Source: Octopus vulgaris
Taxonomy: Eukaryota
Assembly (NCBI GenBank): GCA_951406725.2
Contig: OX597822.1
Coordinates: forward strand, 81,902,001-81,966,000
Length of the DNA: 64,000 bases
Direction: 5' to 3'
Positions 474 to 46,099 of this stretch are shown piece after piece. The notes beneath the pieces were generated by a model. That model was not told where the DNA came from. It worked only from the letters and a program-made list of their open reading frames with translations, and did not search any database. The position numbers and the translations under genes are program-made. Positions within the stretch are counted from its first letter, which is position 1, and the number at the start of each line of letters is the position of its first letter.

Positions 474-742
474 GACGGGCTTCTTTCAGTTTCCGTCTAC
501 CAAATCCACTCACAAGGCTTGCCGAAGGTGCCATGTAGTGTGACTGAACCCAGGACCATGTGGTTGGTAAGCAAGCTACTTACCACACAGCCACTCCTGT
601 GCCTATATATTATATTTGAATTTTAACTGAAAACTAGGTGTGACTTATACATGTGGCAAAGCTAAAACTTGGAAGTGAAGAAATTTTGCATCGTGATTTA
701 ACTCTAAATTAGGTATGCAGTTTATACACCGGTAGAACTGAT
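16..742. mobile_element. pogo/Tigger-like MITE interrupted by a SINE
   Basis: ccgtattt left end and ...gcagtttatacaccggta right region; homologous interrupted copy at 13054-13671. Confidence 0.5.
48..603 (-). mobile_element. tRNA-derived CORE-type SINE (family A), internally duplicated
   Basis: A/B-box head, accttgggcaagt CORE-like motif, internal (TA)n(TG)n, gtaaaaga tail; sequence restarts at ~363. Confidence 0.85.
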
Positions 743-927
743 ATGTGTGCACATGTATAAATAAAACAAGACCAATTCCAAGCAGGGATGTAATGACTCA
801 TTACTTTTGAGTAAGTCATCTCTGCAGCATTTCATATCGTACATCCAAACATATTTCCATATGTAATATATTCAAGTATATAAACAAATACATAAATAAT
901 ACATACACACACATATATAAAATTATA

Positions 928-1308
928 GACGTAGGAGTGGCTGTGTGGTAAGTAGCTTGCTAACCAACCACATGGTTCCGGGTTCAGTTCCACTGCATGG
1001 CACTTTGGGCAAGTGTCTTCTACTACAGCCTCAGGCCGACCAAAACCTTGTGAATGGATTTGGTTGACGGAAACTGAAAGAAGCCCATCATATATATAAA
1101 TGTGTATGTTTGTGTGTCTGTGTTTGTCCCCCCCATCATCGCTTGGCAACTGATGTTGGTGTGTTTACGTCTCGTAATTTAACAGTTTAGTAAAAGACAC
1201 TGATAGAATAAGTACTAGGCTGACAAAGAATAAGTCTGCAGTCGATTTGTTTGACTAAAGGCGATGCTCTAGCATGGCCGCAATCAAATGACTGTAAAAA
1301 TAGAATAA
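928..1308 (+). mobile_element. SINE family A
   Basis: Full-length match to other copies in the window. Confidence 0.85.
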
Positions 1309-1763
1309 AATATATATATAAAGAAATTCTCATCACAGTCACATGACCTGCTAGAAATAGCAACCAAATCACCCTCAAACCACACTTTACCATTCTCGAA
1401 ATGGACAGTCATCAATGTGGTCCCACATGCTCAATGCTTGGTGGGGGAAATATTCAGCACCCCACATACTCACCACCATCACCCTCAAAACAAAAATTAA
1501 ATGATCATGACTTTTGATTGTTGGTCAGCTTGTTCAGTGCAGACTTGGAGTTAAGCAACAGCACTCACACACACACACACACACACACACACCTTGGTTT
1601 CTTCCCCCAATTAATTCTTTGTGATTTTTTTTTCTTTTTCCTGTTTTCTGGTGAAAATCAGTTTATGATGGACAGACATTTGGGAGCCCTGAATATTGTT
1701 TTTTTAATTGGTAGGTCTGAAGGGATGGGGTGTTCTTAACAACATTTGTAGTCCTTTTGAGAT

Positions 1764-2713
1764 CAGGAGTTCTCAACAGGGGTCCATATAAGATTTTATC
1801 GTTAAAATTTATCTGCAATAAATTGCTTATATTTCTACAAAATAGGCACAGGTATGGCTGTGTAGCAAGAAGCTTGCTTCATAACCACATGGTTCTGGGT
1901 TCAGTCCCATTGTGTGGCACCTTGGGCAAGTGTCTTCTACTATAGCTTCAGGCTGACCAAAGCCTTATGAGTAGATTTAGTAGATGGAAATTGAAAGAAG
2001 CCCATCATATATATATATGTGTGTGTGTTTGTGCCCCCACCATCGTTTGACAACCAATGTAGGTGTGTTTACGTCTCTGTAACTTAGCAGTTCAGCACAA
2101 GAGACCAATAGAATAAGTACTAGGCTTACTAAGAATAAGTCTTAGGGTGGATTTGTTCAACTAAACACAGTGTTCCAGAATGGCCACAGTCAAATGACTG
2201 AAACTAATAAACTAAATAAACAAAACATTTTAATTCTTTTATACAATTCCTAATAATATTTAACCAAAAGAAAACAGTTAGATTTTTTTTTTCCAGAGCA
2301 CTCAGCTTTAACATTTACTCTTTGATTAACTGATGCTCTGTTCTCCTTTTTAACGCTTTCGTGTTTAGACTCGTCATATCTGCCCCCAAATACTCTACAT
2401 GTTTTATATTCAAACTATCCCTATCTAGCCTCTCAGACCTAACCGACATTGTCATTCTAAAAATAAATAATCGTCCACTCTGCTGAGTGGTTGGTGTTAG
2501 GAAAGGCATCCAGCTGTAAAAATCCTGCCAAAACAGTCACAAAAGTCAGGTGCAGGCTTCGGCCTGGCCAGCTTTTGTGGTACTGTCCCCACCCATGCTA
2601 GCATGGAACACAACATTAAACGATGATGATAATGATCAAATGGCTATGGAGGTCCAATAGAATAAAACAGGAATCAGAGGTGCCCATGGATAAAAAATGG
2701 TTGAGAACAACTG
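1764..2713 (+). mobile_element. hAT(Charlie)-like MITE with nested insertions
   Basis: TIR caggagttctcaac / gttgagaacaactg; decayed 8-bp TSD tttgagat / tgtaagat; uninterrupted copies at 11600-11842, 16636-16873 and 36191-36454. Confidence 0.75.
1845..2212 (+). mobile_element. SINE family A nested in a hAT-like MITE
   Basis: Full-length match; interrupts the MITE at 1764-2713. Confidence 0.85.
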
Positions 2714-2989
2714 TGTAAGATCAATTCAGTTGTGTTGCTGCAGTGGGGCTAAGGAAGGAATTGCAATGGGTATCTGTTGATATTAGAAGCGGAAATAAAA
2801 TTTAAAGTAGGCTAAATATTATCAATAGAATTTGAAGACAATGCTTAGTTACCATTATTGTTCAGTTAAATTTGAATCTTAGGAAACAAGGACAGCCTCG
2901 AAGAGAAAGCAGCAAATTGGTTGCCAGGGTGCTTTGTTTGTATGGCCTAATCGGTGGAGAAAGTGTACAGCACTTTTTATTCTTTTATT

Positions 2990-3381
2990 TTCTTTTACTT
3001 GTTTCAGTTATTTAACTGCGACCATGCTGGAGCACCACCTTTTAGTTGAGCAAATCGACCCCAGGACTTATTCTTTGTAAGCCTAGTACTTATTCTATCG
3101 GTCTCTTTTTGCCAAACCACCAAGTTACGGGGATGTAAACACACCAGCATTGCATGTCAAGCGATGTTGGTGGGGTGGGGGCAAATACAGACACACAAAC
3201 ACATGTATATATACATATATACGATGGGCTTCTTTCAGTTTCCATCTACCAAATCCACTCACAAGGCTTTGGTCGGTCCGAGGTTATCATAAAAGACACT
3301 TGCCCAACATGCCACACAGTGGGACTGAACCCGGAACCGTGTGGTTGGTAAGCAAGCTACTTAACACACCAGTACAGCCAT
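2990..3381 (-). mobile_element. SINE family A
   Basis: Full-length reverse match. Confidence 0.85.
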
Positions 3382-4564
3382 GATTAACAAGGAAATGGAA
3401 GCAGAATGGACTTAAGAGACAGGTGGTATTACGGTGGGTAACAGTGAAGGTTAGGGATCTGAGTTCAAACTGTCTCCTCTCCAAGTGAGGACTAGTGGAA
3501 GAGGGCAAAGGAAAGTTATTTAAAAGGAAGGAAGAGAATGAAAATGAAAACTTAGGTCAGCATCTAGCATGCCCTCTGGCAGGGCAATGAGAGAACTGTG
3601 GCAGGGATATGTGTAGAAGGAGTAATAAACAGACAAAAGAATAGAATAGAATTTAACTGTTTGTGTGAGCCGACTTGTTGTCTGCCAAGGCAAACAGCGC
3701 TACGAGTGGGGCAGGGAGTGTTTGGCCTATAATCAAAAGAAGAAACTTGTGAAGCAGAAGATATTTTCATCAAACGAATGACATATTGATTTGGACAGAT
3801 TCTTGTTTGTCAGTGTCTTTACATGATGAACTAACCACATCTATTAACCCCCAACAAAGAAAAAAAGTTTCAGTCTTTAATACTTAATTCATTTAACTAT
3901 ATCTCAAGTCAAGTACATGTATGTGCTTTACATGCATTCACACACACACATATTTACACATAGACATTTATACTTATAAACACACACACAACCTCATCAT
4001 AATAGCGAGAGGTGGTGGTCATCGTCATTTTTGTTGTTACAATTCTCAAATAAATTGTATTTTCTGCTCTCCTCCAGAATATTCAAGCTTAGCTAAGGGC
4101 CCTGGTCTCTTGCCATATTTCTTAATGAACCATCGTAAAATTACAGCCAAATTGACCAAGAGAGAAACCACCTCGAAACAATTAAGTTTCTCATCTTAAT
4201 CAATACCAGTTTGATGGTAAACAATATATTGATAGTGAAGAATTCGGTATTTAGAGAAATTTTTTGCAATCCTTTCAATCCATGGTGGTGAAATGAGCAG
4301 AAACTGCTACATGTGCTGAATTTCATTAAAGGAAAGAAAAGAAAGAAGTGAAATGATATGTTACAAATGGATGACATATTCGTTGGCATGGATTCTTGTG
4401 CTCCCTGTCCTTGGACAAATATATTTGATGCCAGCCTTGGACTAATCGATGTCTTGAGTAAGGAAGTAGATGGTAATTATGCAGAATCCCATATATATAG
4501 TCAGACGCCATGATAGATCATTAGCCACTACACACATTTTTTTCTCTCCTTGTTTTGTGTGTCC

Positions 4565-4600
4565 CTTTCTGTAGAAGAGCGTTGGCTCGAAACATAAAAG
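4565..4600 (+). ncRNA. Hammerhead-like motif in a third repeat family (unit ~4512-4700)
   Basis: CTTT-CTGTAGA-a-GAGC(gttg)GCTC-GAAA-CATA-AAAG: stems I and II pair; core position 6 is non-canonical; CATA may be decayed CGTA. Confidence 0.5.
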
Positions 4601-6485
4601 ACTTTTTCTATTCCTGAGCATTATACTAATACCTCTGTTTGTTTTGTACACCACCTGTCTTCATCTTTTGTTTTTTTTGTAAACTCTCCCTATATATATA
4701 TATATATATATATATACAAGCTTGCTTACCAACCACATGGTTCTGGGTTCTGTCCCACTGCATAGCCTCGGGCCGACCAAAGCCTTGTGAGTGGATTTGG
4801 TAGATGCTGGTTGGAGTTCTACCTGCAGTTCAGAATGACCTGCTGCTACAACTCCAATCAGCACCACCACCACGGTCACTACTACTCTCACCACCACCAC
4901 CAACGGTCTCTGCTATTACGGCTAATGGTCATTTTCAACAATTGGCTCATGTAGCTCTATTGCTAAATAGTGGAACTTGTTTTTGACTACACACTACACA
5001 GTGATTGGCACCTTTGAAGTTGGTAGGATTGACATGTCAGAGGTTACAAGACAATCCATTACACAGTGGCTGGCACCTTTCAGGTTACTTCCTTTGAGAT
5101 CTGGAACTACACAACATTTCAGAGTTTGAAAACCTCAAGTCATAACACCAAGGACTTGAGTGTGGCTTTATAACAACATTGTGTCAACTTTTCAACTGAC
5201 TTGATGCTTCATGTATGACTAACAACCAATAAACAGAGACAAACTTCCAAAGACAGGTAAATAAGTACAACTTCAACATGGTCAGCTGACATCTGTATAT
5301 GTTTATATTATGTAATTGCTTTTTTAACAATGTACTCAGTGACATGTATTTATTATTGTTAACCCAGGGGCGTGTGGGGAGGGGTTAGTTTTACCTTATA
5401 ACATCGAGTTTTTTTTGTTTTGTTTTTTTGTCTTTCATCCCTTGACATATTGACAAAATTTAATTTGTTATTATTGGCATTGTCTTTTATTTCTCTCCCT
5501 CACCCCCACCCACCAATGCTTGATGACTCTCCAGATGGCATCTTTCAGTAGGACAGATTTAACTAAGTACCAGTTTAGCTCTGTAGTTAGCTAGATCAAT
5601 AGAGATAGCCTCTAGTTTGTTTGATATTATCAATGGCAGCTGAGGTTGTTTCTCATGTCTGAGAATTTCCATTTTTCCCTGTTGAAGAACTATTAACAGG
5701 AAGAAATGCCAGAGTGACTCTCGCTTTGGTTTCAAGACCACCATCTGTGGCACATAGATATAGGTAGTATAACATGATAGAATTGGACTGTCATCAATAC
5801 AGAATGGTGCCTTCTGAGCCACATTGCTGGCCTTTCCCTTTTCCACCACTCTCAAAGTGGTTGACGTTAGGAAGGGCATCAAGCTGTAGAAACTGTGCCA
5901 GATCAGATTGGAGCCTGGTGCAGCCATCTGGTTCACCAGTCCTCAGTCAAATCGTCCAACCAATGCTAGCATGGAAAGCAGACGTTAAACGATGATGATG
6001 ATGATTCACTTCAGCCATTGTTATTTTCTATGTTTGTTCTGTAGTTGAGGTTCTTCAAGAGGATTTGGTCATGTTCCGTCTGGATTATTGCCTTCAGCCT
6101 CATATTTGTTTTACACCCATTTTTTTTTTTTCGAAGATGGTTCTGCATTGGACAGACTCAAAATATCTTGTATCAGTAATCATTGTAACCCTTCGTGTTT
6201 TAGCACACATAACAACAGAATGATTGACTCTGTTGTTGTGCTGGTCAGATTTCCATGACTAGATTTCCTCACCAACACTATTTCACAGCTTGGACTATAT
6301 GCATTTTATTATGCCATCTGCATAGAAGGATTGGCGTAACGAAACCAAGGATTCTCCTCTCTCGCTTCTGTTCTTTCATGTGGAATGGTTTTTAAAAATT
6401 TTTTATATCACTGGATGTTTTTCATATCGTCAACAACTACACAGTTTGTACTGGTTGTATTTTACAGTGCCACATGTGTGGATAA

Positions 6486-6810
6486 GCCTCGCCTGGCCCC
6501 CGTGCCGGTGGCACGTAAAAAGCACCATACGATCGTGGCCGTTGCCAGCCTCGCCTGGCCCCCGTGCTGGTGGCACGTAAAAAGCACCATCCGTCCGTGG
6601 CCGTTTGCCAGCTCTGTCTGGCACCTGTGCGGGTGGCACGTAAAAAGCACCCACTACACTCACGGAGTGGTTGGCGTTAGGAAGGGCATCCAGCCGTAGA
6701 AACACTGCCAGATCAGACTGGGCCTGATGCAGCCTTCTGGCTTCACAGACCCCAGTTGAACCGTCCAACCCATGCTAGCATGGAAAGCGGACGCTAAATG
6801 ATGATGATGA
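6486..6810 (+). mobile_element. RTE-type retroposon 3' end with three 62-63 bp tandem units and (gat)n tail
   Basis: gagtggttggcgttaggaagggcatccagccgta...ccatgctagcatgg...gatgatgat; related tails at 2475-2635, 5845-6004, 8045-8330(-) and 39780-39960(-). Confidence 0.7.
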
Positions 6811-7715
6811 TATATATATATATTAGTGCAGATGTGGCTGTTGGTTAAGAAGTTTGCTTCCCAACCACTTGGTTTCAGGTTCAGTCCTGCTGTGTGACAC
6901 ACACACATATGGGTAGTGTGTATGTTTATGTCTTCCTGTCTTGACATCACATAATTGTTGTGATTGAGGAGGTGATGATGATGTATTTTCTTTTAACCTC
7001 TCAGCTGTGGCCATTTCCACAACCCTCCTTCATTTAGTTTTGTTTCTTGCCACGGTGTTGGTCCAACTGGGAGCTAATATAAAAAGATGCACAAGGTTTT
7101 CTTAAAAACTAATACATCTACTCTATGTAGCTTTCTTAAGATTTTTAGCAAGGCACTGAAGAAATGTAGGTCATTGAGCCCTAAACTGTTACATTATTCA
7201 GATCTGATTCTTGATGGGGTGGGTGGGACCTGTGATATTCTGCAATGACATTTTCTTAGTGGATTGGTACAGCTTTCACTCTCAAAATTTGATGCTAAAC
7301 CCTCCAGGATTTTCTATATATATCTATATCTATGTATGTATGTATATATGTATGTATTCATATCTTGCATGCCTTTATTCTTGGGAATAGCATCACTGTT
7401 CTTTTAACCTCTACCAGTTGCAATGAGCCAAACATTTTTGGGTAACAGTGTTACTGCTTCAGGTTCCATTCTTAGTTTGATAGCACACACACACACACAC
7501 ACACACACATGTATAAGAATATCTCAAAGCACACACATAATACTATAAATAATGGGTTGAAAACCCCACTATTCATATGTTATTATTTATAACGTTATGT
7601 GCGTGCTTTGAGATATTCCAATTATCTCAGAAAATAATTAGTTCACGTTCTCTCAAAAGTTTATAAAATTCTTATGACATACACACATTCACAATCTTAT
7701 CTATGTGTGTATGTA

Positions 7716-7766
<51 letters not shown>

Positions 7767-7767
<1 letters not shown>

Positions 7768-7995
7768 GGTGGCAAGCTGGCAGAAACGTTAGCACACCAG
7801 GCAAAATTCTCAATAGTATTTCATCTGTTGTTACATCCTGAGATCAGTTTCTGCTGACGCCAACTTAGCCTTTCAACCGATCAAAGTCAATTAAATAAGT
7901 ACCAGTTATGCACTGGGGTCGATGTAATTGTCTTAATCCCTTTGTCTTTCCTTGTTTGTCCCCTCTATGTTTAGCTCCCTGTGGGCAATAAAAAA
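7767..7995 (+). mobile_element. tRNA-derived SINE family B
   Basis: ggcggcgagctggcagaa head, gagttcaaattcc B box and gactttgcctttcatcctttcggggtcgat core, all decayed. Confidence 0.75.
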
Positions 7996-8560
7996 ATATA
8001 TATATACTAAAAATTAAAATAAACAGTCAGGCACTATGTGATACCATCATGATCATTATTATTTAACGTCTGTTGTTCATGCTGGCATGGGTTGGACGGT
8101 TTGACCAGGATTGGTAAGCTAGAAGGCTGTACTAAACTCCAGACTGATTTGGCATGGTTTTCTATGGTTAGATGCCCTTCCTAATGCCAACCACTCCGAG
8201 GGTCATTTTTACATGCCACCAGTATGGGTACTATTTGCATGACACCAGGGTGTGTTTACATGCCACCGGTACAGGTGCCAATTTGTGTGACACTGGTATC
8301 CTCCACAACTGTGGTTTTGCTCAGCTTAGGATGCTGGAGCACCTACATTGCTAGAAATAAGAGTTAAAATACTCCTAATGCTGTAGGAAGAGTGCATAGA
8401 GTCTATATACACACACACACACATGGGGCACAATTGTTGTAAATAAATGTCACTATCATACAATACAGATGTGCTTTCAGTGAAAGCACATCTGGAAATA
8501 ATAACAACATTAACAACATTTGTTGTCACCACCAGCTTAATAATAATAGTAATAATAATA

Positions 8561-8987
8561 ATCCTTTCTACAATAAGCACAAGGCCTGAAATTTTGTGGG
8601 AGGGGACTACTCAATCATATCAACTCCAGTGTTTCACTGGTACTTATTTCATTGACCCCAAAAGGATGAAAGACAAAGTCGACCTTGGCAAGATTTGAAC
8701 TGAGAACTTAGCGACAAGTGAAATACTGCCAAGCATCTTGCCCAGTGTGCTAACGATTCTGCCAGCTCACCACCTAAAAGGAAGGAAATAATCTTTTCTA
8801 CTCTAGACACAAGTCCTGAAATTTGTGTTAGATCGACCCCAGTACACAACTGGTACTCAATTTATTGACCCCGAAAGGATGAAAGGCAAAGTCGACCTCA
8901 ACGGAATTTGAACCCATAACATAGTAACAGGCAAAATACTGCTAAGCATTTCGTCCAGCATGCTAACGATTCTGCCTGCTTGCCGCC

Positions 8988-9026
<39 letters not shown>

Positions 9027-9240
9027 GTTTCAAATTTTGGCACAAGGCCAGCAATTTCAAAAGAATAGATGTGTCAATTACATTGACCCCAGTGCTCTGG
9101 TACTTATTTTATTGACCCAAAAAAAGGATGAAAGGCAAAGTCCACCTCGGCAGAATTTGAACTCAGCATGTGAAGATGGACGAAATGCCACTAAGCATTT
9201 TGCCACACGTGCTAACGATTCTGCCAGCTGACCACCTTCT
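8561..9240 (-). mobile_element. Three tandem family B SINEs separated by (aat)n
   Basis: Three consecutive reverse matches. Confidence 0.8.
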
Positions 9241-9654
9241 TAATAATAACAATAATAATAACAACAACAATGATAATCACCAAGGTAAAGATAAAACTGG
9301 TCCTGCCTGCAGCTGCAAAGTGGAACGGATTAGCATCTGTGGTAAACACCTGTCCTGTTGTTGTCGGGAGGAGTGGGTAGAGATGATGATTATGAATGAG
9401 ATGACAGTAATCATTATACTTGTTCGTTTATTTTACAAGCTACAATGCCTAAGGAAGATTTTCGAATATCACACATTTGCATGTGTGTGTGTAATGTAAT
9501 GTGGTAGAAATAGTTTGATGTGTGTTGTGGAGTAAATACGTTTTAGTTAAAGCTTTGTATTTTCTCTGTGGCTTCAGGTTCCTTGCTAGACAGGCAATCT
9601 TTATATTAACAAAAAAGTTTTAAATGCTAATGTGTCTAAAATATTTTAAATATT

Positions 9655-10030
9655 TGTGTGGTAAGTAGCTTGCTAACCAACCACATGGTTCCGGGTTCAG
9701 TCCCACTGCGTGGCATCTTGGGCAAGTGTTTTCTGCTATAGCCCCGGGCCGACCAATGCCTTGTGAGTGGATTTGGTAGACGGAAACTGTAAGAAGCCTG
9801 TCGTATATATGTATATATATATATATATGTGTGTGGGTGGGTTTGTGTGTCTGTGTTTGTCCCCCTAGCATTGCTTGACAACCGATGCTGGTGTGTTTAC
9901 GTCCCCGTCACTTAGCAGTTCGGCAAAAGAGACCGATAGAATAAGTCCCGGGGTCAATTTCATTGACTAAAGGCGGTGCTCCAGCATGGCTGCAGTCAAA
10001 TGACTGAAACAAATAAAAGAGTAAAGAGTA
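9655..10030 (+). mobile_element. SINE family A
   Basis: Near full-length match. Confidence 0.85.
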
Positions 10031-10504
10031 TACCACCTCAAAAAAAAAAACTAGTAATACAAGTAGTCAACTTTAATATAGAGAGATAGACATCTTCTTC
10101 ATCATTTTAACGTCAACTCTTCCATGTTTGTTTGGGTCAGACAAGTGTATGTTGGGGTAGGGTTTTCTACAGCTGGATGCTCTTCCTGTCACCAACCCTC
10201 ATTTGGAAACAAGTGAGGTAATAATTTCCCAGTTTATCAAACGACAAACTGCCTAAACATGTTCCTGTGAAGACCCGGGAACAAATGACTGGATGAATAC
10301 CCCACTTTTTTTTTTGCCATGATTGCATAACATATCTCTTTTATGTATGTATATATGTATGCATATTATGTGTAAGCCAGCAAGTTGGCAGATACATGCA
10401 TGCATGTGCGTGTGTGTGTATTGAAATTGTAATTGTAATGATCTTTTTGACGTTGACTGATGTGGAATTAGCTATGAATTTTTTTAATGTTTTTTTTTAA
10501 CACA

Positions 10505-10901
10505 CACGCGCATGTATCCAGAGTTGTATTTAATAAAAGGTTATTTCAGTTCCATGGCCCTCAATATTTGCTTAGTGCAGATGAATGTCCAGACCTTCAA
10601 AATCATAGTAAGAAGAATTTAAAGACCCGGCAATCACATACAGCTAGCTGGCATTCAATTGGCGTATCAAGTTTCGGGCATTTTGATTGGGATTTGGATA
10701 GAAAATTTACAAAAAGTCACTTCTGTTGATTTTTTTTAATGGCTTTGCTGGGTGACTGGGGAAATGTAAAGATGTGCACGACCACCCTTGGATGGTTTTG
10801 AATGACCATAGAAAGTGTGAGCCCTCTAACTGAAAAATTGTGGATTTGTATAAAGGATATGCACACACAGACAGACATTTTGCCGTTTATATATATAGAG
10901 A
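10505..10901 (-). mobile_element. Non-autonomous Helitron 5' portion
   Basis: Reverse strand begins tctctatatatataaacggcaaaatgtctgtctgtg, typical of Helitron 5' ends; left boundary uncertain. Confidence 0.5.
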
Positions 10902-11095
10902 TTAATTGGGTGAGGGTAGGCAGTCATTATTGTCTAATTGTATCATATGAATAATTTTATAAAACAGCTGCAGTCATTTGGAAATGGTTTCACATGACTG
11001 TTGGGAATTTGACAATATCAAAAATTGCTTGTGGTGACAGAAAGTTGTTCCACATGGTCAAGCAAGCGATCTAGCAACGTCAGCTTACATGTGTC

Positions 11096-11110
11096 ATGGA
11101 TTGCTGCATG
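11096..11110 (+). CDS. Candidate alternative first coding exon (MDCCM)
   Basis: gtcATGg start context, in-frame upstream TAG at 11072, perfect ATG|gtgagt donor in phase 0, unique sequence; possible acceptor at 10966-10967. Confidence 0.45.
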
Positions 11111-11915
11111 GTGAGTATTAGATGGGGTCTGGCAGACCACAATAATAATAATAATAATAATACATAGAAGGGAAATTATCTCACTATGGACTTAATTTAT
11201 CGGCTCTGAAAGGATGAAATGTAAAGTTGACCTCATCGGAATTTGAACTCAAAACATAGCACCAGGGGAAATACTGCTAAACATTTTGTCTAATATGCTA
11301 AAAATTCTGCCACCTTGCCACCTTCAATAATAATAATGCTGATATCCCATAAAAATCACCTTAGCCCTAACTGAATCCGTGCAGGGGTCACTTAGGGCTA
11401 AGGTGGTCTTTATAGAATATCAGTAGTGGGAGATTATTTCCTTTGTCCATTATGACATCAACTGACATGCTCCTCTTCCAAGTAAAAACATGTATAAAAT
11501 TATCTGATGTTGCTGTTCTGTCAAACTGTTCATATTCTCACCCAGAAACTATCTTTAAGATCTCCCTATTCTGACTTTGTACATCTGATGGAGTAGATGA
11601 GTGGTTCTCAACTGGGGTCTATACAACCCTTCAGGGTCCACTTAAGATTTTGTTGTTAAAATTCATACACCATAGATAGGTTCAACATCTACAATACACA
11701 AAATACAACATTTTAATACAATTCCTAATAATATTTAATTCTAAAAATACAGGATTTTTTGAATATTGAATGGCTATGAGGGTCCAGTTGAGGATGCAGG
11801 AATCAAAGAGGCCCATTGGTAAAAAATGGTTGAGAAACACTGGCTCACCTGTGTCTATGGAACTTGGAGGAATACAGAGCTGAATCAATCTGGATTTTCT
11901 TTTTTTTCTTTACAT

Positions 11916-12240
11916 AGCATGGCTATGTAGTAAGATGCTTGCTTCTCAACCACATGGTTCTGGGTTCAGTCCCACTGCCTGGCACCTTGGGCAAGTGTCT
12001 TCTACTACAGCCTCGGGCCAAGCAAAACCTTGTGAGTGGATTCAGTAGACGGAAACTGAAAGAAGCCTGTCATGTGTGTGTGTTTATGTCCCTATAACTT
12101 AGCAGTTCAGCAAAAGAGAATGATAGAATAAGTACTAGACTTCAAAAAATAAAGTCCTGAGATCAATTTGTCCAACTAAAACCCTTCATGGTGGTGCTCC
12201 AGCATGGCTGCAATCAAATGATTGAAACAAGTAAAAGATA
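11916..12240 (+). mobile_element. SINE family A with internal deletion
   Basis: Head, CORE-like motif and tail present. Confidence 0.8.
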
Positions 12241-13086
12241 ATTGAAATCATGTCTCAACATTTTATGGCCAGACGCTCTTCCTGCTGCTAACCCCTTTTG
12301 GTTTCCCCCTAACAACATGCAAAGACTCAGTTTACCTGTTCTAAAGCCATTCCTGGAATAATATGTGTGTGTGTATAAAATATATTTATGTTCTTGTGTC
12401 CTAAATAACAGAAATGGTTTCAGTTCTTGTGAAAACGATAAACAAAAAGGTTTAATCTACTGTGAAACGGATTATCTAAGCTGATTATGTTTACATTTAA
12501 AGAAGTAGGTAGATTATCCTGTATTCAGTTTTGTATGTTCGGCAAAGAACTTATTAGTTTCCTAAGACCAATCGTTTCATTTTTCCTTGTGCCTACATTA
12601 TCTAGTATGTCTGTCTATCTTTCCTTTTTTAAGGCATTAAGGGGATAATTTGAGGCCAGATTTAGCTGCATTTCTACAACCATATACAAGCTACTCACTA
12701 GATAGCCTATCTGTGATTTATGAGATGTTTGTATGGTGATGGTTGATTGCCATGAAATGTATGTTGTGGAACCAGGAGAAGGTTAGATCTTTTGCATGTT
12801 GTATCATATAGTTGTGAAATGTAGGTGGTGTCAATAGTGAAATATGAACGGTGGAGGAGCAACACTGAATAATTGTTGTGAAATGTTGGCAGTTTAAAGA
12901 ATGTGAAATATGATCATTGATGGAGAAATATAGTAAATAATTGTTACTATGTAGGTATAAAGTGTGGACAATTGTGGAAGAAGACTTATAAAGCTGTGAA
13001 ATGTGAACAATAAATGTAGAATAAAATGGAACCAATTATGGTTAAAGAACTCTTACTACATTTACACATGAATCTCACTATTTTTA

Positions 13087-17535: not shown

Positions 17536-18444
17536 GTAAAGTTAAACTAAAAAGGATGTCCTTGCACCTAAATTTCTTTAAGCCATACTCTATTCATTAT
17601 CATCACTTAACGTCTACTTTTCCATGCTTGCTTGGGGTTGGCACAATTCATTGAGGTAGATTTTCTACAGTTGGATGTCCTTCTTGTCACCAGCCTTCAC
17701 CAGCTTCTAAACAAGGTAACATTCCCTCATGGCTTGACATGTTTTACACAAGATAGACTGGAAATAGACAACCCCGGTTGTATAACATTGATACTTATTT
17801 ACAACTATCATTTGATGTCTAGACAAGAGTATACGCACACATGTCCGTGCACACACAACAGGCTTCTTTTAGTTTCCATCTATCAAATCCACTCACAAGG
17901 CTTTGGTCAGCCAGGGGCTATAGTAGAAGACACATTGGATAATGTAGTCCTAAATAAATTATGTCTGAATAAGACACTAGACAGTTACAGTTGAAACCTT
18001 TTTATTTATATATCTGCCAGAGCATTTTTAACAACCAAAGCTAACAGACCAATAAGGAATGTAGTCATGTTTTCTGCTCAAAATAGCTAAATTGCCCTCA
18101 AAATTAGATCCTACCATTGTTTAAATAAAAACGAATGATGCATTGGTTAAGACAGTTCCATATTCACCATGTCTGAATAAAAGACACAATGGTCATGTAA
18201 CTTCAGTTTTAACCTGTGTGTGCTTTATGGTAATTGATTAAAGAAGGAAATAATTTGTAAGGCAATGGTTATGATAAGTGGAAAGCAACAACAAAAACTA
18301 CATTGGAACAACAAGCAAAATATTCAAAGTGGGGTTTAAACAACCTATCAATTCTTTCTGCAACATATACGAAAGGAATACAACATCTTTGTTACAATGT
18401 CCTTGGAACCTAGACAGAAATTTTAAACAAAAATGTTGAGTAAT

Positions 18445-18585
18445 AACTTTGCTGTGTAGATGTAGAGACTCAAAGCTAATACCATCTGGCTTTTGAATAT
18501 AACGGCACCAGTGGATTCATATAAAGCTAGAAGAGTAGCAGCAAGGGCAGGACATGCCCTCGTCCTTGAGAGGATCCATTACAAA
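18445..18585 (+). pseudogene. Penelope-like ORF N-terminal fragment, same family as 38733
   Basis: TLLCRCRDSKLIPSGF, frameshift, ITAPVDSYKARRVAARAGHALVLERIHY; 18509-18585 is near-identical to 38731-38806. Confidence 0.6.
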
Positions 18586-19244
18586 GCCATCTAATAATTA
18601 GTAGTATAGTGTACCGGTGTAAACGCTAATACATAATCATATTGAAAAACTGGTCCCAATTGCTGACAGCGTAACTCACTGAAGTTTGTACAATAGTGAC
18701 AGAATGGCTGAATGGCAGCCCTATAATGATAACCATTATAAGCTTTGCCTTGTAATCATCCTCATCACATGAATAAGACTAACAAACAAACAGATTTCCA
18801 AATGCAATGATCAGTAACCTATAACTGAATAACTAGTTGCCATCCGAAAGATTGCAATGCATGAAAGTTGACTGCTAGCCAATACGTATGGTTCAATAAA
18901 TATATGAATAAATTCTATATTTTTTGTCAAGTATTTTCTCATCTGATTACAACTGCAATGTTTGTGTGTGTGTGTGTGTGTATGCATGCAATTAAAAAAA
19001 AAGGAAAAATTTGCCAGTATGATTTAAAAAAAAAAATCAAATATTGAAAACAGATGTTCCTTTACAACTTATTCATCATGTCATGCACGTATTACACATA
19101 TGATGTAAACATGTAATGAAAATATAACTGGGTTTTCTCTTGAAATATATTACTAGTTTTTTTTTTCTTCTTCTTTGCGAGTTCCTTGCAGTCACTCAAG
19201 GCCTCTGTGGTTGATGGAGTCATTCCAATGGAATTTGTTGTGTT

Positions 19245-33844: not shown

Positions 33845-35806
33845 TTAAGATGAGATGATGGGGCATGATTATGCAGGAGATTTAGGTTACTATTTCAAGC
33901 AAATTGAGTAACTATGTAGAAGCTTCTTTGTTGGCTCCTTTGTTCTGGAGTGGAGTGCAGTCATCCTCTTCAGTTCATAGGAAAGGTCAGAACTCACCCT
34001 CCCCTGCAAGTAAACAAAAACATTCTATATAAATTAACTGCTCAGATTTTAGTATATATAATTATTGATTTCCTACATTGGTGCTACATGAATGAGCAAA
34101 ATCAATAATAACTTTATTTTATTAACCCTACCCCTGTATTTTATTGGTATTTTATTTTATTGATCCTTGGAAAGATGAAATGTAAAATTGATCATAGCAG
34201 TGTTTGAACTCAGAACATAAAAAGAAACCATAACTAAATGCTGGATCCACCACAAGATCTAGTGTTTTGTTTTGTTTTGGTGTGGCGGGTTATGTCTCAA
34301 TGACCCTGAGAACTAAACCAGTGGAGTACAACCTCTGGTTGGGTTTCCCATGCTGAACAGGTCAAAGGTTAGAGGCCAGACTAATATAGGCCACCTCTTT
34401 CCTGAGGTAAAAATGGGTTTGCATGAGGTCAACATCCTCCCACACTTAGGGAAAAAGCAAAGTTACAAAAGCAGTGAAACTAACAAAACCTGGAAGAGAG
34501 AGGGCCTCAAAGAAGAGCAGATCTTGAGGTGCAAGTGAGGATTGACAGGTCACACTATAAATCCCTGGGTTGACAACAGTATAGGTCACCGATGACCTAT
34601 GTTCTTAGGCAGCAAAGAGCTTATAAATAATGCATAGTGTTTTTGTCCGACATTTTTGCAGTTTTGCAAATCCAAATGATATACGACCTTATAAGTACTA
34701 ATTTGAGGCTGAATAGAACAATGGATTCTCGTGCTGAATCTATCAATTACTGGGTGACTGTTTTTACTGATTATACTAGTTGTGTTTGCTGTTTCATAAA
34801 ATTAAAATTAAATAATTGGTACAAATTGTTTGTTATAATATCTTGTTTGAAAAGATAGCATTACAAGTGTTCTGTTATCTGCTCAGTCAAAGATGACTTG
34901 TGGTTAAATAATATCCTAATCAATTTGTTTTGTCATCAATAATCATTGGCCTCTATTTTCCAGTTAACTGGTTCAGTGGTGTCTCTTCCTGAAAGTCATG
35001 TAGATTATAGAGAGTGCCATAGTTTAGTGGGTTGTTGGGGCACCATTGAAATCTTTGTCTCCATGTGCCACAATTTATCTGTGTTACATCAGCATTTGGT
35101 TAGAGCAGCTCTAAGAAATAGCAGTCAAATCACGTTCAAATCACACCCAACCGCCTTAAGAAAGGGAAGGGCTTGACGTACAAAAGCATGGAATAAAATA
35201 TCCACAGCTGAAACACCTTTTGGTCATAGGTTTACTCAGTTGCGGCTGACCCAGGGCTAAACAACAAATAGTATTATGAACAACAGCATGTTGTTAGCAT
35301 TAAGTGGTGGTGGTGGTGGTGGTGCTTCTTTACAGCTAGTTGATCTAGTTTATTCATGAATGACATCTGATTGATACATGGCTGTACTCACAGCTCAGTC
35401 ACTCAGCCATTTAATGTGCTTAATTTATTGTGAATCCATTTCAATAGGCTGGTTAATTGTAGGAACAGAAAAGTCAATTGTGTGGCAACAGGAAAGGCAT
35501 CCAGCTATGGAAAATCTGCCTCAACAAATTCCATCTGACCTTTGCAAGCAAGAAAAAGGGGACATTATGATGATGATGATAAACAGTGTTACTTCATTAG
35601 AAATAGTCCTAAAAGGGTTGAATCCATTTCTCAACTCAGTCTTTCGCCTACTGCATCTAAGATTAGTGGTTTTGTTTTCTTTTTTTCTTTTTGTGTCCAA
35701 AGGTAGTATTGATAATAAATTTCAATACAGTTCTGTATTTAAAAGATGAGGAATTATGTACATTATTTATATTTGACGGATATTTGTCCTCATCTTGTTT
35801 GTTGTT

Positions 35807-35852
35807 AACACAACGTTTAGGCTGATATACCCTCCAGCCTTCATCAGGTGTC
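35807..35852 (-). ncRNA. Hammerhead motif with GAAA mutated to TAAA (probably inactive)
   Basis: Reverse strand reads gacac-CTGATGA-aggctg...cagcc-TAAA-cgtt-gtgtt. Confidence 0.65.
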
Positions 35853-35997
35853 TTGGGGAAATTTTGAACCTGGGTTCTCATTCCTAAGGTATTTTTCGAT
35901 GTTATTATTATTATTATTCAGGTCACTGCCTGGAATCGAACTCGGAATCTTGGGGTTAGAAGCCCGCGCTCTTAACCACTACGATTCCAGGCAGTGG

Positions 35998-36032
<35 letters not shown>

Positions 36033-36079
36033 TTGAAAAATACCATAGGAATGAGAACCTAGGTTCGAAATTTCCCCAA

Positions 36080-36125
36080 GGCACCTGATGAAGGCTGGAG
36101 GGTATATCAGCCGAAACGTTGTGTT
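36080..36125 (+). ncRNA. Minimal type-I hammerhead ribozyme motif, core intact
   Basis: ggcac-CTGATGA-a-GGCTG(gagggtatat)CAGCC-GAAA-CGTT-gtgtt: stem I, core, stem II, palindromic AACGTT stem III, GUU cleavage triplet. Confidence 0.8.
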
Positions 36126-36529
36126 AACAACAAACAAGATGAGGACAAATATCCATCAAATGTAAATTGAATATACTTGAGTTGCTTTAACACTGTATTT
36201 CTCAACTGGGGCTCTATATGACCCTTGAGGCGGGGTCCACATAAGATTTTGTTGTTGAAACTTATGTGCAATAAACTGGTTATTCTTCTACAAAACACAA
36301 AATATTTTAACGATTATTTTACACAATTCCCCAGGATAATTATTAATAACGAAAATGCAATAGTATTTTTTAATCATTGAATGGCTGTAAGGGACCATCC
36401 AAGGAAAATAGAAACCTAAGGGGTCCCTAGGCAAAGAATGGTTGAGAACCCCTGGTTTGGCATAACTCCTCTTGTCTTTCCACTGCAGTAGTGATTATCT
36501 CATTGGCATTGCACTATAACAATCTTTCC

Positions 36530-36775
36530 TTATTGTGTCTGGGGAAATTCATTATCTTTTAGTACCTTATTATTTAACACACTAACCAGTTTGATTTTCA
36601 CTGCGTCTTGCAACCTTTTCAATAGTCATTGAATGGACAGAATCAACACCTATTGAAAAGGTTGCAAGACGCTACGAAAATTTTAGAAAGACTAAATAAT
36701 TGAGTGGAAATCGAACTAGTGAGTTTGTTAAATTATAAGGCACTAAAAAAGAATGACTCTCCCCAGACACAATAA
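36530..36775. mobile_element. Second fold-back element family with a U3-A8 hammerhead variant
   Basis: Outer arms ttattgtgtctgggga... / ...tccccagacacaataa; perfect inner arms 36603-36625 / 36650-36672; ribozyme-like motif 36650-36686. Confidence 0.65.
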
Positions 36776-38613
36776 AATATGCTTCAACACACGAATTCAC
36801 ATAAAGAATCTGGCAAACCAAATCCAAAAGCGAAATCTTTCCTTAGACTTGATTTTAATTCTGGTTGCATTCATTTTGAATTTCTCTTCCTCCTGAGCTG
36901 TGACATTGGTGATTGTGTGTTAGAGGGTGGTGTATTGCGAAAGTATTATGAAATGGAAGATGGAGATGGATGGGTTAGCTTTAGGTCTACCCTAATTGAA
37001 CTGATCCATGATTGAGTTCCAGCCATGACCATCTCATCTTTATTTTTCTAAGTATAGTATATCTAGGGCTACATTATTGAGTGTACTCAACGTTATTTAA
37101 GATGGTGGTATGTCATTCAATAAAGATTTAGCTATTATTTCTAGCAGATCGAATAACCATATAGAGGTATCTCTCTCTCTCTCTCTCTCTCGATATTTGT
37201 AGATCGTTAAATATAACGATCGTTAAATATAATGGTGATGACTATGATAACTGTGGTATACTTTTGTCTGTCTGTCTGTCTATCTGTTTGTCCTCTATTC
37301 TTACTCCTAAAAGGAAGTGACAGAGGTGACAGTGGGAGTAATATATGGTTTAGTAATGTATCAGTCTGTCTCTCTAACCCCCCTCCCCATCTCTCTGTCT
37401 CTTTCACTCACCTTGCCACTTTCTCACCCCCCCCTTCTCTCTCTCAGCATAGTGGTAATACTATGTGAAAGTGACAGTTCTGAAATGAAGGTCGTGGTGG
37501 TGGTGGTGGTGGTGGTAATTTCAAAATTGGGACGGGTAGTAGTGGGTGTAGTGAAAGTGATGTTATGAAATTTAATAAGTTAGGGAACTCGGGAGTGGTG
37601 ATGACAAGCCTGGAGAAGAAGGTGGCACAGATTTTAATGTGCTGGGAGGGGAGGGGCAAGGCAGAGTAAGATTTAGTTTAACAATTTGTTGTAATGATGA
37701 TGATTGGGAAAAATGTATGTGTGTGTGTTTAAATCTCTCTCTCTCTTTCTTCCCCTCTCTCTCTTTATCCTCTTTCTCTGTGTGTCTCCAAGCTGTAAAC
37801 AAAAACAAAACCGTAAATAATCATAGAAAATTATTAAAAAAAAAACAAAACATAATTAATGTTATTAGTTGATGTTTAATTTGTTGTTAATGTCCCATTT
37901 CCATTTTTCAGTAATCAGATTTGTCACTGTTAGTCAGCAATCCCAATTGAATGAGACACAAAACAGGACATACACAGATTTTTTTCTTTGTTGTTTTTTT
38001 TTTCACACATCTTCCATTTTTTCACCCAATCTCCTCCCCCACAAGTCTATGATAGTTATTTCTGCCCCCCACCCACCCCCGCCATTAACATCGTCTTGCA
38101 GTCTCAACATAAACATTCCTGATAACTTAACATGAAGGAATTTGTTTTTGTTTCTTTGTGTGTGTATATGCCCGTCAATGTATGTATTAATTAATTAATT
38201 AGTCAGGGACAGAAAATGGAACCCACTAGATTCATTTATTCAAATCCTCTACAATTGTTTCAACTCTTCCTGCATTTGTACCCCACAGGTGAGATGCTGA
38301 ACAATCAATGGCCAACAAAGCAGACTGTCACCTGTGTTTATTTTTTTGTGTGTGAGATGCTGAACAATCAATTATCTTGTATCTCCTCAGGTGACTTTTT
38401 AAACAAGTACCTCACTCTTTCTTCCTTCCATTTCACCCAGCTCTATTAAGATATATTTTTAGATTTTTTCTACATTTAAGAGATGAGGAATTATATACAT
38501 TATTTATGAATACCAAACAATAATACTGATAATACAGTTCTATATTTAAGAGATGAGGAATTATGTACATTATTTACATTTGATGGATATTAGTCCTCAT
38601 CTTGTTTGTTGCT

Positions 38614-38659
38614 AACACAACGTTTCGGCTGATATAGCCTCCAGCCTTCATCAGATGTC
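38614..38659 (-). ncRNA. Minimal type-I hammerhead ribozyme motif, core intact
   Basis: Reverse strand gacat-CTGATGA-a-GGCTG...CAGCC-GAAA-CGTT-gtgtt. Confidence 0.75.
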
Positions 38660-38732
38660 TTGGGAAAATTTCAAACCTGGGCTCTCATTCCTAGGGTATT
38701 TTTTCGATGTTAATATTATTATTCAAGTCACA

Positions 38733-38978
38733 GTGGATTCATATAAAGCTAGAAGAGTAGTGGAAAGGGTAGGACATGCCCTCGTCCGTGAGAGGATCTA
38801 TTACAACTGTTGGAAAAAACATTAACTAAATAACAAAATCAAAGAGAGGTTATCTTCATCACTTGGGAAAATAACCAGAGATGATGATGGAAAGAGAATC
38901 CAACAAGATCTGGAAAAGAAAGAATTTGAAATTGTGAAGACACATCAGATTAAGAAGTTTATGAAACTCAAAGGTCAT
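38733..38978 (+). pseudogene. Penelope-like retroelement ORF N-terminal fragment
   Basis: VDSYKARRVVERVGHALVRERIYYNCWKKH*LNNKIKERLSSSLGKITRDDDGKRIQQDLEKKEFEIVKTHQIKKFMKLKG, one frame with one stop; A..L..ERI and Q.KKF..L motifs recalled from PLE pre-RT regions. Confidence 0.65.
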
Positions 38979-40140
38979 CTGAGTTCAATTCCAGGCAGTG
39001 ACCAGAGTAATAATAATAATAATAACATCGAAAAATACCTTAAGAATGAGAACCCAGGTTCGAAATTTCCCCAAGACACCTGATGAAGGCTGGAGGGTAT
39101 ATCAGCTGAAACGTGTTAACACCAGACAAGATGAGGACAAATATCCGTCAAATGTAAATTATGTATTTTTAGATGGTTTGCTACATTCTAGCAGTTTTCA
39201 TAAGAATCAAATGTTGAAACAATTGTAGTGGATTTGAATAAAGAATCCCATGAATTCCATTTTCTGTGCTTGATCTATTTATATAAAACTCCACAGACCT
39301 CAAGGAATTCATGAAATAAATCCAGTAGCATATGCTGATGTTGACACCAGGTAGCCAGTAACAGTGGATGTGCTTTACACAGTATCCTATAAGGTTTATC
39401 CCCAAATATAATTGTATATGTATATTTGTGCATATGTGTCTTGGTATTCAAAGTGGTGCCCCAGAATGGCTGCAGCGATACAAGTAAAAGATGACAGATT
39501 TGCAGAGAATTCAGGAACACATTATTGAGTGTGTCCATTTCTAAAATGCTAGGTTTAATTTGAGGGAGATTTAGTTGCCATTTCTAGTTGGTCAAACAAC
39601 CATACAGAGGTTCTTCAGTGACTTATTGGTGTGATGCAGTTTGAAAGACATTTTGTTGCTGTTTCTAGCAGATCCAGTGAAGTGACCAAAAGCTAAAAGT
39701 CAGCCTAGCAGGGGAAGCAGCTACAAAGAAGGTCCCACATCTCTCGTTTATCCAAGTTAATTTTTGTGGATGTCATCCTCAACATCATTTAAAGTTTTGT
39801 CCATGTTGGCATGGGTTGGACGGTTTGACAGGATCCAGCGGGCTGTAGGACTGCTTTGTGCTCCAACGTCAACTTTGGCATGGTTCCTATCACTTGATAC
39901 CCTTTCTAATACCAACCACTTTACAGAGTGTAGGGGTGCTTTTTTCATGCCCCTGGCATTAGCGCGGTCAAAAAGATCATGGTAAAGGGGAGTGCATGTG
40001 GTGGGGAAGATGGGTTTATGCCAGGTGCTGAGAGCTTAAAGTATAATAAAAGGACAAGCATAGGGGAATACAGTTTGCCAGATTAAAAGCACTCCAGCCA
40101 TGACTAAACCAACTATTTATGTATCTAGGACTACATCATC

Positions 40141-40522
40141 CAATATAGTTCTATATTTGAGAGATGAGGAAATATATACATTATTTACATTTGACGGATA
40201 TTTGTCCTCATCTTATCTGTTAACACATTTCGGCTGATGTACTCTCCAGCCTTCATCAGGTCTCCTGGGGGGAATTTCAAACCTAGATTCTCATTCCTAA
40301 GATATTTTTCAGATGTTATTATTGTTATTATCATTGTCACTGCCTGGAATTGAACTTGGAATCTTGGGGTTAGTAGCCTGTGCTCTTAACCACCTTAGGA
40401 ATGAGAACCCAGGTTTGAAATTTCCCCTAGACACCTGATGAAGGCTGGAGGGTATATCAACCGAAACGTTGTGTTAATAAACAAGATTAGGACAAAAATT
40501 CGTCAAATGTAAATAATGTACA
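40141..40522. mobile_element. Fold-back element copy C with target-site duplication
   Basis: Minus arm 40141-40394, plus arm 40392-40522; tacatcatccaat at both 40132-40144 and 40519-40531. Confidence 0.8.
40430..40475 (+). ncRNA. Minimal type-I hammerhead motif with one stem II mismatch
   Basis: gacac-CTGATGA-a-GGCTG...CAACC-GAAA-CGTT-gtgtt. Confidence 0.7.
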
Positions 40523-40954
40523 TCATCCAATGTTTCCTTTCAGTGATTTTATGAGACAATTGACTGCTATTTCTAGCATGGCAAATAAACACAGAAAAAT
40601 CCCACGTTGGCTCATTAACTTAATTGTCGCTGTAGATGTGGTAGCTTGCAATTATTCAGTTACCCAGATTAACAATCTCATTGTTTTTCTTCATCTTTGT
40701 TGCAGTTATTTCTGAATTCCCATTGTATCAACAAAACATATACACACCAATGTGCCTTAGGTATTTAATATATGCCCATGTCTCTCTCTCTCTCTCCCTC
40801 TCATGCCTACCAATCTGGGTTTTTTTTTATGTCTATATATGTCTAAATATGTCTTTGTGGCTCAGTATCTATCAGTAATCTGCCTATCTCTATATTTGTC
40901 TGTCCCTATCTGTTTGTATGTCTGTAACTATGACATCATTTGTCTCCATCCATC

Positions 40955-41509: not shown

Positions 41510-41915
41510 AACTATACTACTGATTGGGTCAGGTTGTTGTGAAAAAGAAAATTCCTAATAATGATGAAGAATTATGCTGGATGAAGAGAAAAGAAATGTG
41601 CTGGAGAATGGTACCATAGGGTACTCCTGATAGATGCTGATTTAAGAAGATTTAGAATATCGTAGGTAGTTCGAGCAACATAAAAGGAATAGCACTTTAA
41701 AGTGCTGCCACTGCAGATGTTCTATCTTATCTTTAAACGTTTATTTCTGATAAATTCCTCTCAGAACACTCTGGTTTTTTCTCTATAAGTAAATTTTTCT
41801 ATCTTGTAAATTTACTTTCTGGTTCATTCGTTCTTACTTCACAGCAAGTTTTTCTGAAGGATATACTAGGATATGCATGCTGATGAGGTCAGAATAAGAG
41901 TGAAACATGATCAGA
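41510..41915 (+). mobile_element. Degraded Penelope-like 3' end
   Basis: Interrupted ...QVVVKKKIPNNDEELCWMKRKEMCWR... resembling a GIY-YIG C-terminal RE..W motif, followed by CTGATGA...GAAA at 41880-41905. Confidence 0.3.
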
Positions 41916-45637: not shown

Positions 45638-46022
45638 TATTCTTTTCTACTCTAGGCACAAGGCCCGAAATTTTTTGTGAAGAGGGGGCAAGTCGATCAG
45701 ATCGACCTCCAGTACGCAACTGGTACTTAATTTATCGATCCCGAAAGGATGAAAGGCAAAGTCGACCTCGGCGGAATTTGAACTCAGAACGTAGCAGCAG
45801 ACGAAATACCTATTTCTTTACTACCCACAAGGGGCTAAACACAGAGGAGACAAACAAGGACAAACAGACGGATTAAGTCGATTATATCGACCCCAGTGCG
45901 TAACTGGTACTTAATTTATCGACCCCGAAAGGATGAAAGGCAAAGTCGACCTCGGCGGAATTTGAACTCAGAGCGTAACAGCAGACGATATACGGTTACG
46001 CATTTCGCCCGGCGTGCTAACG
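45638..46022 (-). mobile_element. Dimeric SINE family B
   Basis: Same composite structure as 28874-29272, reverse strand. Confidence 0.85.
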
Positions 46023-46099
46023 ATTCTGCCAGCTCGCCGCCTTACATTCGGTGAATATTGACTTCATTCCTTTGGCTTCGGGCAGCATGAAGCCTAAAC

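Follow-up and report, generated by a model that had tools for sequence, protein, structure and literature searches.

Endonuclease-positive (EN+) Penelope-like elements (PLEs) are characterized by an inverted 5'-truncated copy together with a 30-40-bp tail (PMC8557442), and an inverted layout of their pseudo-long terminal repeats (pseudo-LTRs) has already been described. The hammerhead ribozymes of metazoan PLE pseudo-LTRs are of the minimal type I, with a palindromic or absent helix III, and are predicted to act as dimers (PMC4209133). In Poseidon_Ac from the green anole, reverse transcriptase (RT) starts 111-118 nt into the open reading frame (ORF), a 30-40-nt tail lies between its two start sites, and the hammerhead extends across the start codon (PMC11167929). 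The present work concerns a locus in Octopus vulgaris, located within a 64,000-nt stretch of assembly GCA_951406725.2 (contig OX597822.1, positions 81,902,001-81,966,000 of the forward strand), hereafter the window, which is AT-rich and dense in short repeats. At this locus, two inverted arms, each carrying a hammerhead and a PLE start codon and reaching back into a tRNA-like head, enclose a piece of a PLE ORF. The explanation that we favour, and consider fairly probable, is that an element of the Penelope/Poseidon type inserted once and has since decayed, its pseudo-LTR comprising the ORF start, the hammerhead and likely the tRNA head, and that the enclosed ORF piece likely arrived by a one-off RT jump or through a later deletion.

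The comparisons with published systems refer to the accessible parts of the cited papers. The locus resembles a Poseidon-type PLE, an assignment by analogy that rests on domain order and on likeness to Poseidon_Ac: both display a hammerhead at the ORF start, two RT sites in the 5' ORF and AT-rich targets, and they agree in having an N-terminal domain placed before RT and GIY-YIG (PMC11167929). On the other hand, the accessible text on Poseidon_Ac mentions no tRNA-derived head, whereas the octopus arms have a head followed by (AAT)n. The hammerheads of PMC4209133 share with the octopus arms a bulged base ahead of helix II and a 4-5-bp helix I, with no difference seen between them and the ribozyme predicted here.

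RNA polymerase III (pol III) promoters have been reported (i) in the Schistosoma hammerhead repeats resembling short interspersed nuclear elements (SINEs), where such a promoter precedes the hammerhead in one unit (review PMC6765202), and (ii) in Helenus, Ajax, Cassandra and TRIMp3, where a small-RNA-derived pol III promoter lies in the retroelement terminal repeat (PMC10886601). Compared to the octopus unit, which has a PLE ATG and peptide and forms inverted pairs with a tail, the Schistosoma repeats are described as non-coding and tandem; Helenus, Ajax and Cassandra, unlike the octopus element, are non-autonomous LTR elements without a hammerhead. In PMC10886601, pol III is argued to be too weakly processive for autonomous partners, and the word Penelope is absent from the main text. 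The incomplete Pen2 derivative of Adineta vaga arose by microhomology-mediated deletion, as opposed to the blunt join found here, and the word tRNA is absent from the main text of that paper (PMC3846280). In non-LTR retrozymes, units that each contain a type I hammerhead are repeated in tandem, head to tail (bioRxiv 10.64898/2026.07.22.740005); this identity was rejected, since all three insertions described below are inverted pairs. No PLE pseudo-LTR with a tRNA-derived head was found in the literature, subscription papers, paper supplements, Repbase and Dfam lying outside the search and possibly holding the family.

Pseudo-LTR arms

The six arms of the window, arranged as three inverted pairs, share 86-96% identity, and the two arms of the locus are 88% complementary across 158 columns (minus arm 38531-38731 against plus arm 38978-39165; from a BLASTN search of the window with 38400-39300). 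Translated in the sense direction, the arm aligns with residues 10-54 of P0006, a protein of 345 residues that is 50% identical to P0002, an Octopus sinensis gene model; O. sinensis is also the source of the closest named protein relatives. The alignment scores 82, compared with 59 for the best of 2000 shuffles and 47 for the next best among the other 152 proteins, and a separate comparison gave an E value of 2e-8. The part of the peptide behind the hammerhead scores 52 by itself, a value reached by none of 2000 shuffles, and the initiator Met is followed by the hammerhead-encoded Pro at a distance of 11 residues in the arm and 10 in P0006. Since P0006 matches the arm at its N-terminus and the enclosed ORF piece at residues 105-186 (30 of 82 identical), both are to be regarded as parts of one ORF type, about 50 codons apart. 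As judged from these alignments, the arms hold the beginning of a PLE ORF, about 53 codons long; the possibility of an intron in the arm was rejected, its continuous frame matching P0006.

Counted from the ATG, the 3' ends fall at two fixed places, +118 to +126 in the three plus arms and +154 to +159 in the three minus arms. Because these two ends match the RT start sites of Poseidon_Ac, the arms are, by analogy, ordinary pseudo-LTR ends. Loose ends from three DNA runs and one RNA run cluster at 38530-38535 and at 39165.

A hammerhead core is present in all six arms; the motif of the intact one in the minus arm of the locus places it with the minimal, dimer-type kind of PLE pseudo-LTRs. Inspection by eye classed two as intact, one as having a stem II mismatch and three as damaged in the core or at the cut site; read in the same way, the minimal type I motif overlaps the ORF start in the pseudo-LTR, as in EN+ PLEs. 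The motif was not found by Rfam, whose hits below the gathering score were hairpins or simple repeats, and its exact pattern has no match in metagenome contigs. Single-strand folding of heads and hammerheads revealed nothing unusual (z -0.26 to 0.91), as expected for a dimer-type motif, and was not used as evidence.

Upstream of the start codon, the two longest arms (at 35.9 and 40.4 kb) extend over ~60 nt that display (i) the GG of a D-loop, (ii) a YU-NNN-R anticodon-like loop and (iii) a T-loop B box, at the spacing of a tRNA. A skeleton pattern, hand-written from the invariant positions of tRNA numbering after the head had been seen, hits the window twice, both times in this family and hence not independently, and averages 0.12 hits (maximum 3) over 100 Markov resamples. 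The head was recognised by neither ARAGORN nor Rfam; pairing is incomplete in its anticodon and T stems, and no copy in the window retains its 5' end, which would include the 5' half of the A box. In each of the four arms that reach into it, the head stands in line with (AAT)n and the ATG, and a fifth arm begins within the last bases of the head; head and (AAT)n are found some 45-110 nt upstream of the ATG. The head occurs nowhere else in the window, and no other sequence stands upstream of the ATG in any of the six arms. With respect to tRNA-derived SINEs (SINE2), which are non-coding units independent of the 5' end of their autonomous partner, the arms were seen to contain the start codon and an N-terminal peptide of a PLE. 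The one unusual part of this element is a probable tRNA-derived promoter shortly before the start codon.

Two further observations concern the use of arm sequence elsewhere. Among three longer candidate proteins, two matched the arm peptide (P0155 and P0156), neither of them an ORF-bearing PLE: P0156 is a read-through of an inverted pair, and P0155 (O. sinensis LOC115224785, isoform X2) begins with the arm ATG and 36 arm-encoded residues, followed by Cys-rich, membrane-protein-like sequence, so that by its sequence the arm appears to be used, or predicted, as the first exon of a host gene model. In the unstranded RNA run X23, the arms (38538-38680 and 39040-39165) draw ~700-4,000 raw reads per bin on both strands. 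Because 79% of the mapped reads continue into unlike sequence, these reads come mostly from copies within other transcripts; no pile-up of molecule ends was found across 38400-39300.

The enclosed ORF piece

The piece between the arms (38731-38977) measures 247 nt, or 82 codons, and has no start codon of its own. The length given in a sequence-only reading of this DNA, about 82 codons between inverted arms, was thus correct; the frame is not open, a TAA at 38823-38825 splitting it. Most contigs from public DNA runs read C instead of T at position 38823, and the stop is therefore confined to a small number of copies. Relative to P0002, with which 58 of 76 residues are identical (76%), the piece is three codons short, and the contigs show nine additional letters behind 38917.

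P0002 shares 66% identity with P0003 across 93 residues, and P0003 in turn matches a profile built from 11 relatives of at least 700 residues (742-853) with an E value of 3.5e-196, in an alignment that spans the RT and endonuclease regions. All 11 profile proteins match RVT_1, and two match GIY-YIG weakly, under the curated cut-off; Pfam returned nothing useful for P0001, P0002 and P0003. The ORF piece matches the same profile with an E value of 7.2e-13. In a six-frame translation of the window it is the top match (E 7e-11), the sole other match being a frameshifted scrap at 18.4-18.6 kb (E 0.007-0.016), which is N-terminal like the piece and 92% identical to it. From this chain of identities and profile scores, the peptide is assigned to the N-terminal part of a Penelope/Poseidon-type ORF, in agreement with the PLE N-terminal motifs noted in the sequence-only reading and contrary to the refuting outcome named there, a peptide unrelated to PLEs. 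The ORF is accordingly homologous to proteins with RT and, at the C-terminus, GIY-YIG, as in EN+ PLEs, and the locus itself carries neither domain.

Arms at 86-96% identity and an ORF piece at 92% to the 18.5-kb scrap point to one age class. A shared start base of the scrap and the piece was considered and rejected, the scrap reaching further upstream. No relative of P0003, P0006 or P0002 was found among metagenome, viral and prokaryote genome contigs.

Insertion structure and junction

The insertion spans ~38477-39160 (684 nt) and begins with a tail scrap, which is followed by the minus arm, then by the ORF piece and finally by the plus arm (Table 1). It is bracketed by a single decayed target-site duplication of ~26 bp, whose score is equalled by one of 2000 random window pairs; because this one duplication encloses the whole structure, the locus is read as one insertion in which the pseudo-LTRs are inverted. 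Neither of the two sister pairs contains the ORF piece. The right-hand sister (40141-40526) has a perfect flanking duplication of 13 bp (13 of 2000 random pairs score as high), and none was found around the left-hand one (35723-36168). An inverted 5'-truncated copy with a 30-40-bp tail at one end is seen in all three pairs. All three lie within 4.8 kb of the 64-kb window (35723-40526), each with the tail on the left, in the minus arm.

In sense, the ORF piece agrees with the plus arm, and it corresponds to a slightly later part of the same ORF type. Its left join shares one base; its right join (38977/38978) is blunt and stands 5 nt upstream of the B box at 38983-38992. Four of the 24 public runs listed (three DNA, one RNA) were mapped onto 38400-39300; runs X18-X20, which are insect and termite metagenomes with a share of 0.05-0.06, do not count as evidence. 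Among the longest 24 contig pieces from the three DNA runs (98,196 further pieces lie outside this set), 13 fall on the ORF piece, and none of the 24 crosses either join; seven of the 13 start at 38730-38731, and another three match up to 38977, where their sequence becomes unlike that of the locus. Contig depth, which is no measure of copy number, decreases from 4,700-12,700, 470-1,820 (run X3) and 2,650-5,960 on the ORF piece to 116, 18 and 20, respectively, in bin 38989-39019. The junction is thus likely rare or unique, a scar of one-off copying or deletion, and it shows a single joining of ORF and head, not the architecture of a family.

These results bear on the remainder of the sequence-only reading. 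The fusion of the frame to the B box of the plus arm was right. The limits proposed there, 38533..39164, are replaced by those of the insertion plus the tail scrap at 38468-38506. The hammerhead unit does belong with a PLE, as had been claimed, and the link is stronger than supposed there, through a different route: the arm itself encodes the ORF start and the junction looks one-off, so the link runs via the arm and not via the junction. A one-off junction cannot by itself choose between the two origins offered, the element's own pseudo-LTR or a template switch. Of the two outcomes that had been named as damaging to the claim, a unique junction appears to hold, with no listed contig crossing the join and sister pairs without the piece, and terminal repeats unrelated to the autonomous element are contradicted for the hammerhead part by the arm-encoded ORF start.

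Table 1. Coordinates of the features at the locus and of related features in the window.
Feature	Position	Strand	Details
Left copy of decayed target-site duplication	38451..38476	+	22/27 columns identical to 39161-39187
Extra PLE tail scrap	38468..38506	-	37/39 identical to 38538-38576; overlaps left duplication by 9 nt; then ~24 nt filler
Inverted 5'-truncated pseudo-LTR arm with ~37-nt tail	38531..38731	-	starts at 3' end of tRNA-like head; ATG 38688; ends +158 from ATG
Minimal type I hammerhead, intact by eye	38614..38659	-	CUGAUGA core, bulged A, 5-bp stem II, GAAA, palindromic ACGU replacing stem III, U at cut site, 5-bp stem I
N-terminal PLE ORF piece	38731..38977	+	residues 105-186 of relative P0006; TAA 38823-38825; 3 codons short near 38917
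3' third of tRNA-like head	38978..39003	+	T arm, B box 38983-38992, acceptor-like 3' strand; blunt join to ORF piece
(AAT)n spacer, head to start codon	39008..39025	+	
Start of PLE ORF in plus arm	39046..39165	+	ATG 39046; ends +120 from ATG; without tail
Plus-arm hammerhead	39075..39117	+	3-nt deletion at predicted cut site; likely dead
Right copy of decayed target-site duplication	39161..39187	+	
Sister inverted pair without ORF piece	35723..36168	.	minus arm: longest tRNA-like head and open 55-codon ORF start
Sister inverted pair without ORF piece	40141..40526	.	head in minus arm; 13-bp perfect flanking duplication
Isolated N-terminal ORF scrap, same family	18442..18586	+	70/76 identical to 38731-38806; no arm close by

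Proposed mechanism and alternatives

Under the favoured explanation, (i) the endonuclease of the element would have cut AT-rich DNA; (ii) RT would have started within the 5' ORF at two sites separated by ~37 nt, a behaviour demonstrated in vitro for Poseidon_Ac, giving the tailed inverted arm and the untailed direct arm; and (iii) in the direct arm, RT would have copied back across the hammerhead and (AAT)n as far as the T arm of the head, and would have resumed on codons ~186 to ~105. The last step may have come about either by skipping ~2 kb in an RNA of unit length or in a tandem one, or by later deletion of that stretch, or else by a jump further 3' on a short RNA initiated at the head, the latter being predicted to serve as an internal pol III promoter. 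Within this course of events, the anatomy, the homology, the two fixed 3' ends and the duplication are observed.

Several points weigh against this explanation. The right join shares no letters, and so offers no microhomology. Among the DNA copies seen, none has the head behind the end of an endonuclease-coding ORF, and none has an arm that continues into the ORF. The link from arm to ORF is drawn through P0006, a 50%-identical relative from outside this family. The profile search of the six-frame translation found no RT or endonuclease fragments in the 64-kb window, both ORF scraps being N-terminal; plain 3'-anchored truncation does not predict N-terminal scraps only, although two scraps carry little weight. 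The two arms that extend furthest upstream both stop in the D-loop of the head, ~4 nt apart, as a short head-initiated RNA would give. In addition, repeats at 39000-39035 were skipped in mapping, which weakens the low depth past the join, rare variants are dropped from contigs, and the share of locus words in any one run was at most 0.35, so that the runs may not include the source of the window itself.

In a possible, if tentative, variant, an autonomous Penelope with a captured tRNA gene as the internal pol III promoter of its pseudo-LTR would mass-produce its own SINE-like hammerhead copies from short head-initiated RNAs, which would extend into the 5' ORF, be bound at that place and be copied from the internal RT start sites, the ORF piece being the trace of an RT jump. 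The presence of N-terminal ORF scraps only would then follow, because RT would have jumped to the 3' part of the short RNA.

It is more doubtful, although compatible with the same observations, that the tRNA head belongs to a separate, non-autonomous SINE-like derivative, a tRNA promoter fused to the PLE's pseudo-LTR and ORF start, with RT switching once from its short RNA to the mRNA of an autonomous element and so capturing the ORF piece. The stops in the D-loop, never further upstream in either of the longest arms, would suit such a derivative, as would the abundance of arm sequence, which exceeds the ORF piece by 2-3 orders of magnitude in summed contig depth and raw RNA reads (~700-4,000 against 3-6 per bin); the same pattern, however, is expected if transcription of the autonomous element starts from the head as well. 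The sense strands of the six arms and of the ORF piece have no run of five T, so that pol III could read through, a weak point in that these pieces are short and A-rich. PLE pseudo-LTRs are moreover able to mobilise other sequence in trans (PMC3846280, accessible part). Against the derivative stands the lack, in any of the six arms, of an alternative sequence ahead of the ATG; it also calls for a second RNA, although a single one would be enough.

A propagating, internally deleted subfamily uniting ORF piece, head and hammerhead is improbable. All parts do lie in one insertion and in one sense, and deleted PLE copies can be transcribed, such as a Chlamys-3 copy with a 2.84-kb deletion (PMC8557442, accessible part), but no listed contig from the three DNA runs crosses the junction, depth collapses beyond it, and two sister pairs lack the ORF piece. 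Very improbable is an older ORF scrap in or beside which two arms landed independently: an armless scrap does exist at 18442-18586, yet one duplication brackets the whole structure, the tailed and untailed inverted layout is that of the two sister pairs, and the ORF piece shares its sense with the plus arm at similar divergence.

Other repeats in the window

The insertion is flanked by an older inverted repeat (38190-38264 and 39213-39286; ~75 nt, 84% complementary), and the PLE may have landed inside an element resembling a miniature inverted-repeat transposable element (MITE). A near-perfect hairpin of ~35 bp at 36590-36687, for which Rfam gave microRNA hits below the gathering score, is possibly a small MITE. 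Two more hammerhead-like cores, at 41880 (+) and 59174 (-), combine a short stem II with GAAACAUG in sequence unrelated to the arm family and are probably the ends of another PLE family. Besides these, the window holds at least two other abundant families of short interspersed repeats (e.g., 47-324, 925-1116, 8591-8780 and 45858-46047) that have no sequence in common with the tRNA-like head.

Biological implications

The junction is an ordinary scar of little weight, and the tRNA-headed pseudo-LTR matters more. The transcription and translation of PLEs are poorly known; if the head drives pol III transcription of a coding PLE, the octopus element would show how a SINE-like family can arise from an autonomous PLE, and would provide a simple test system.

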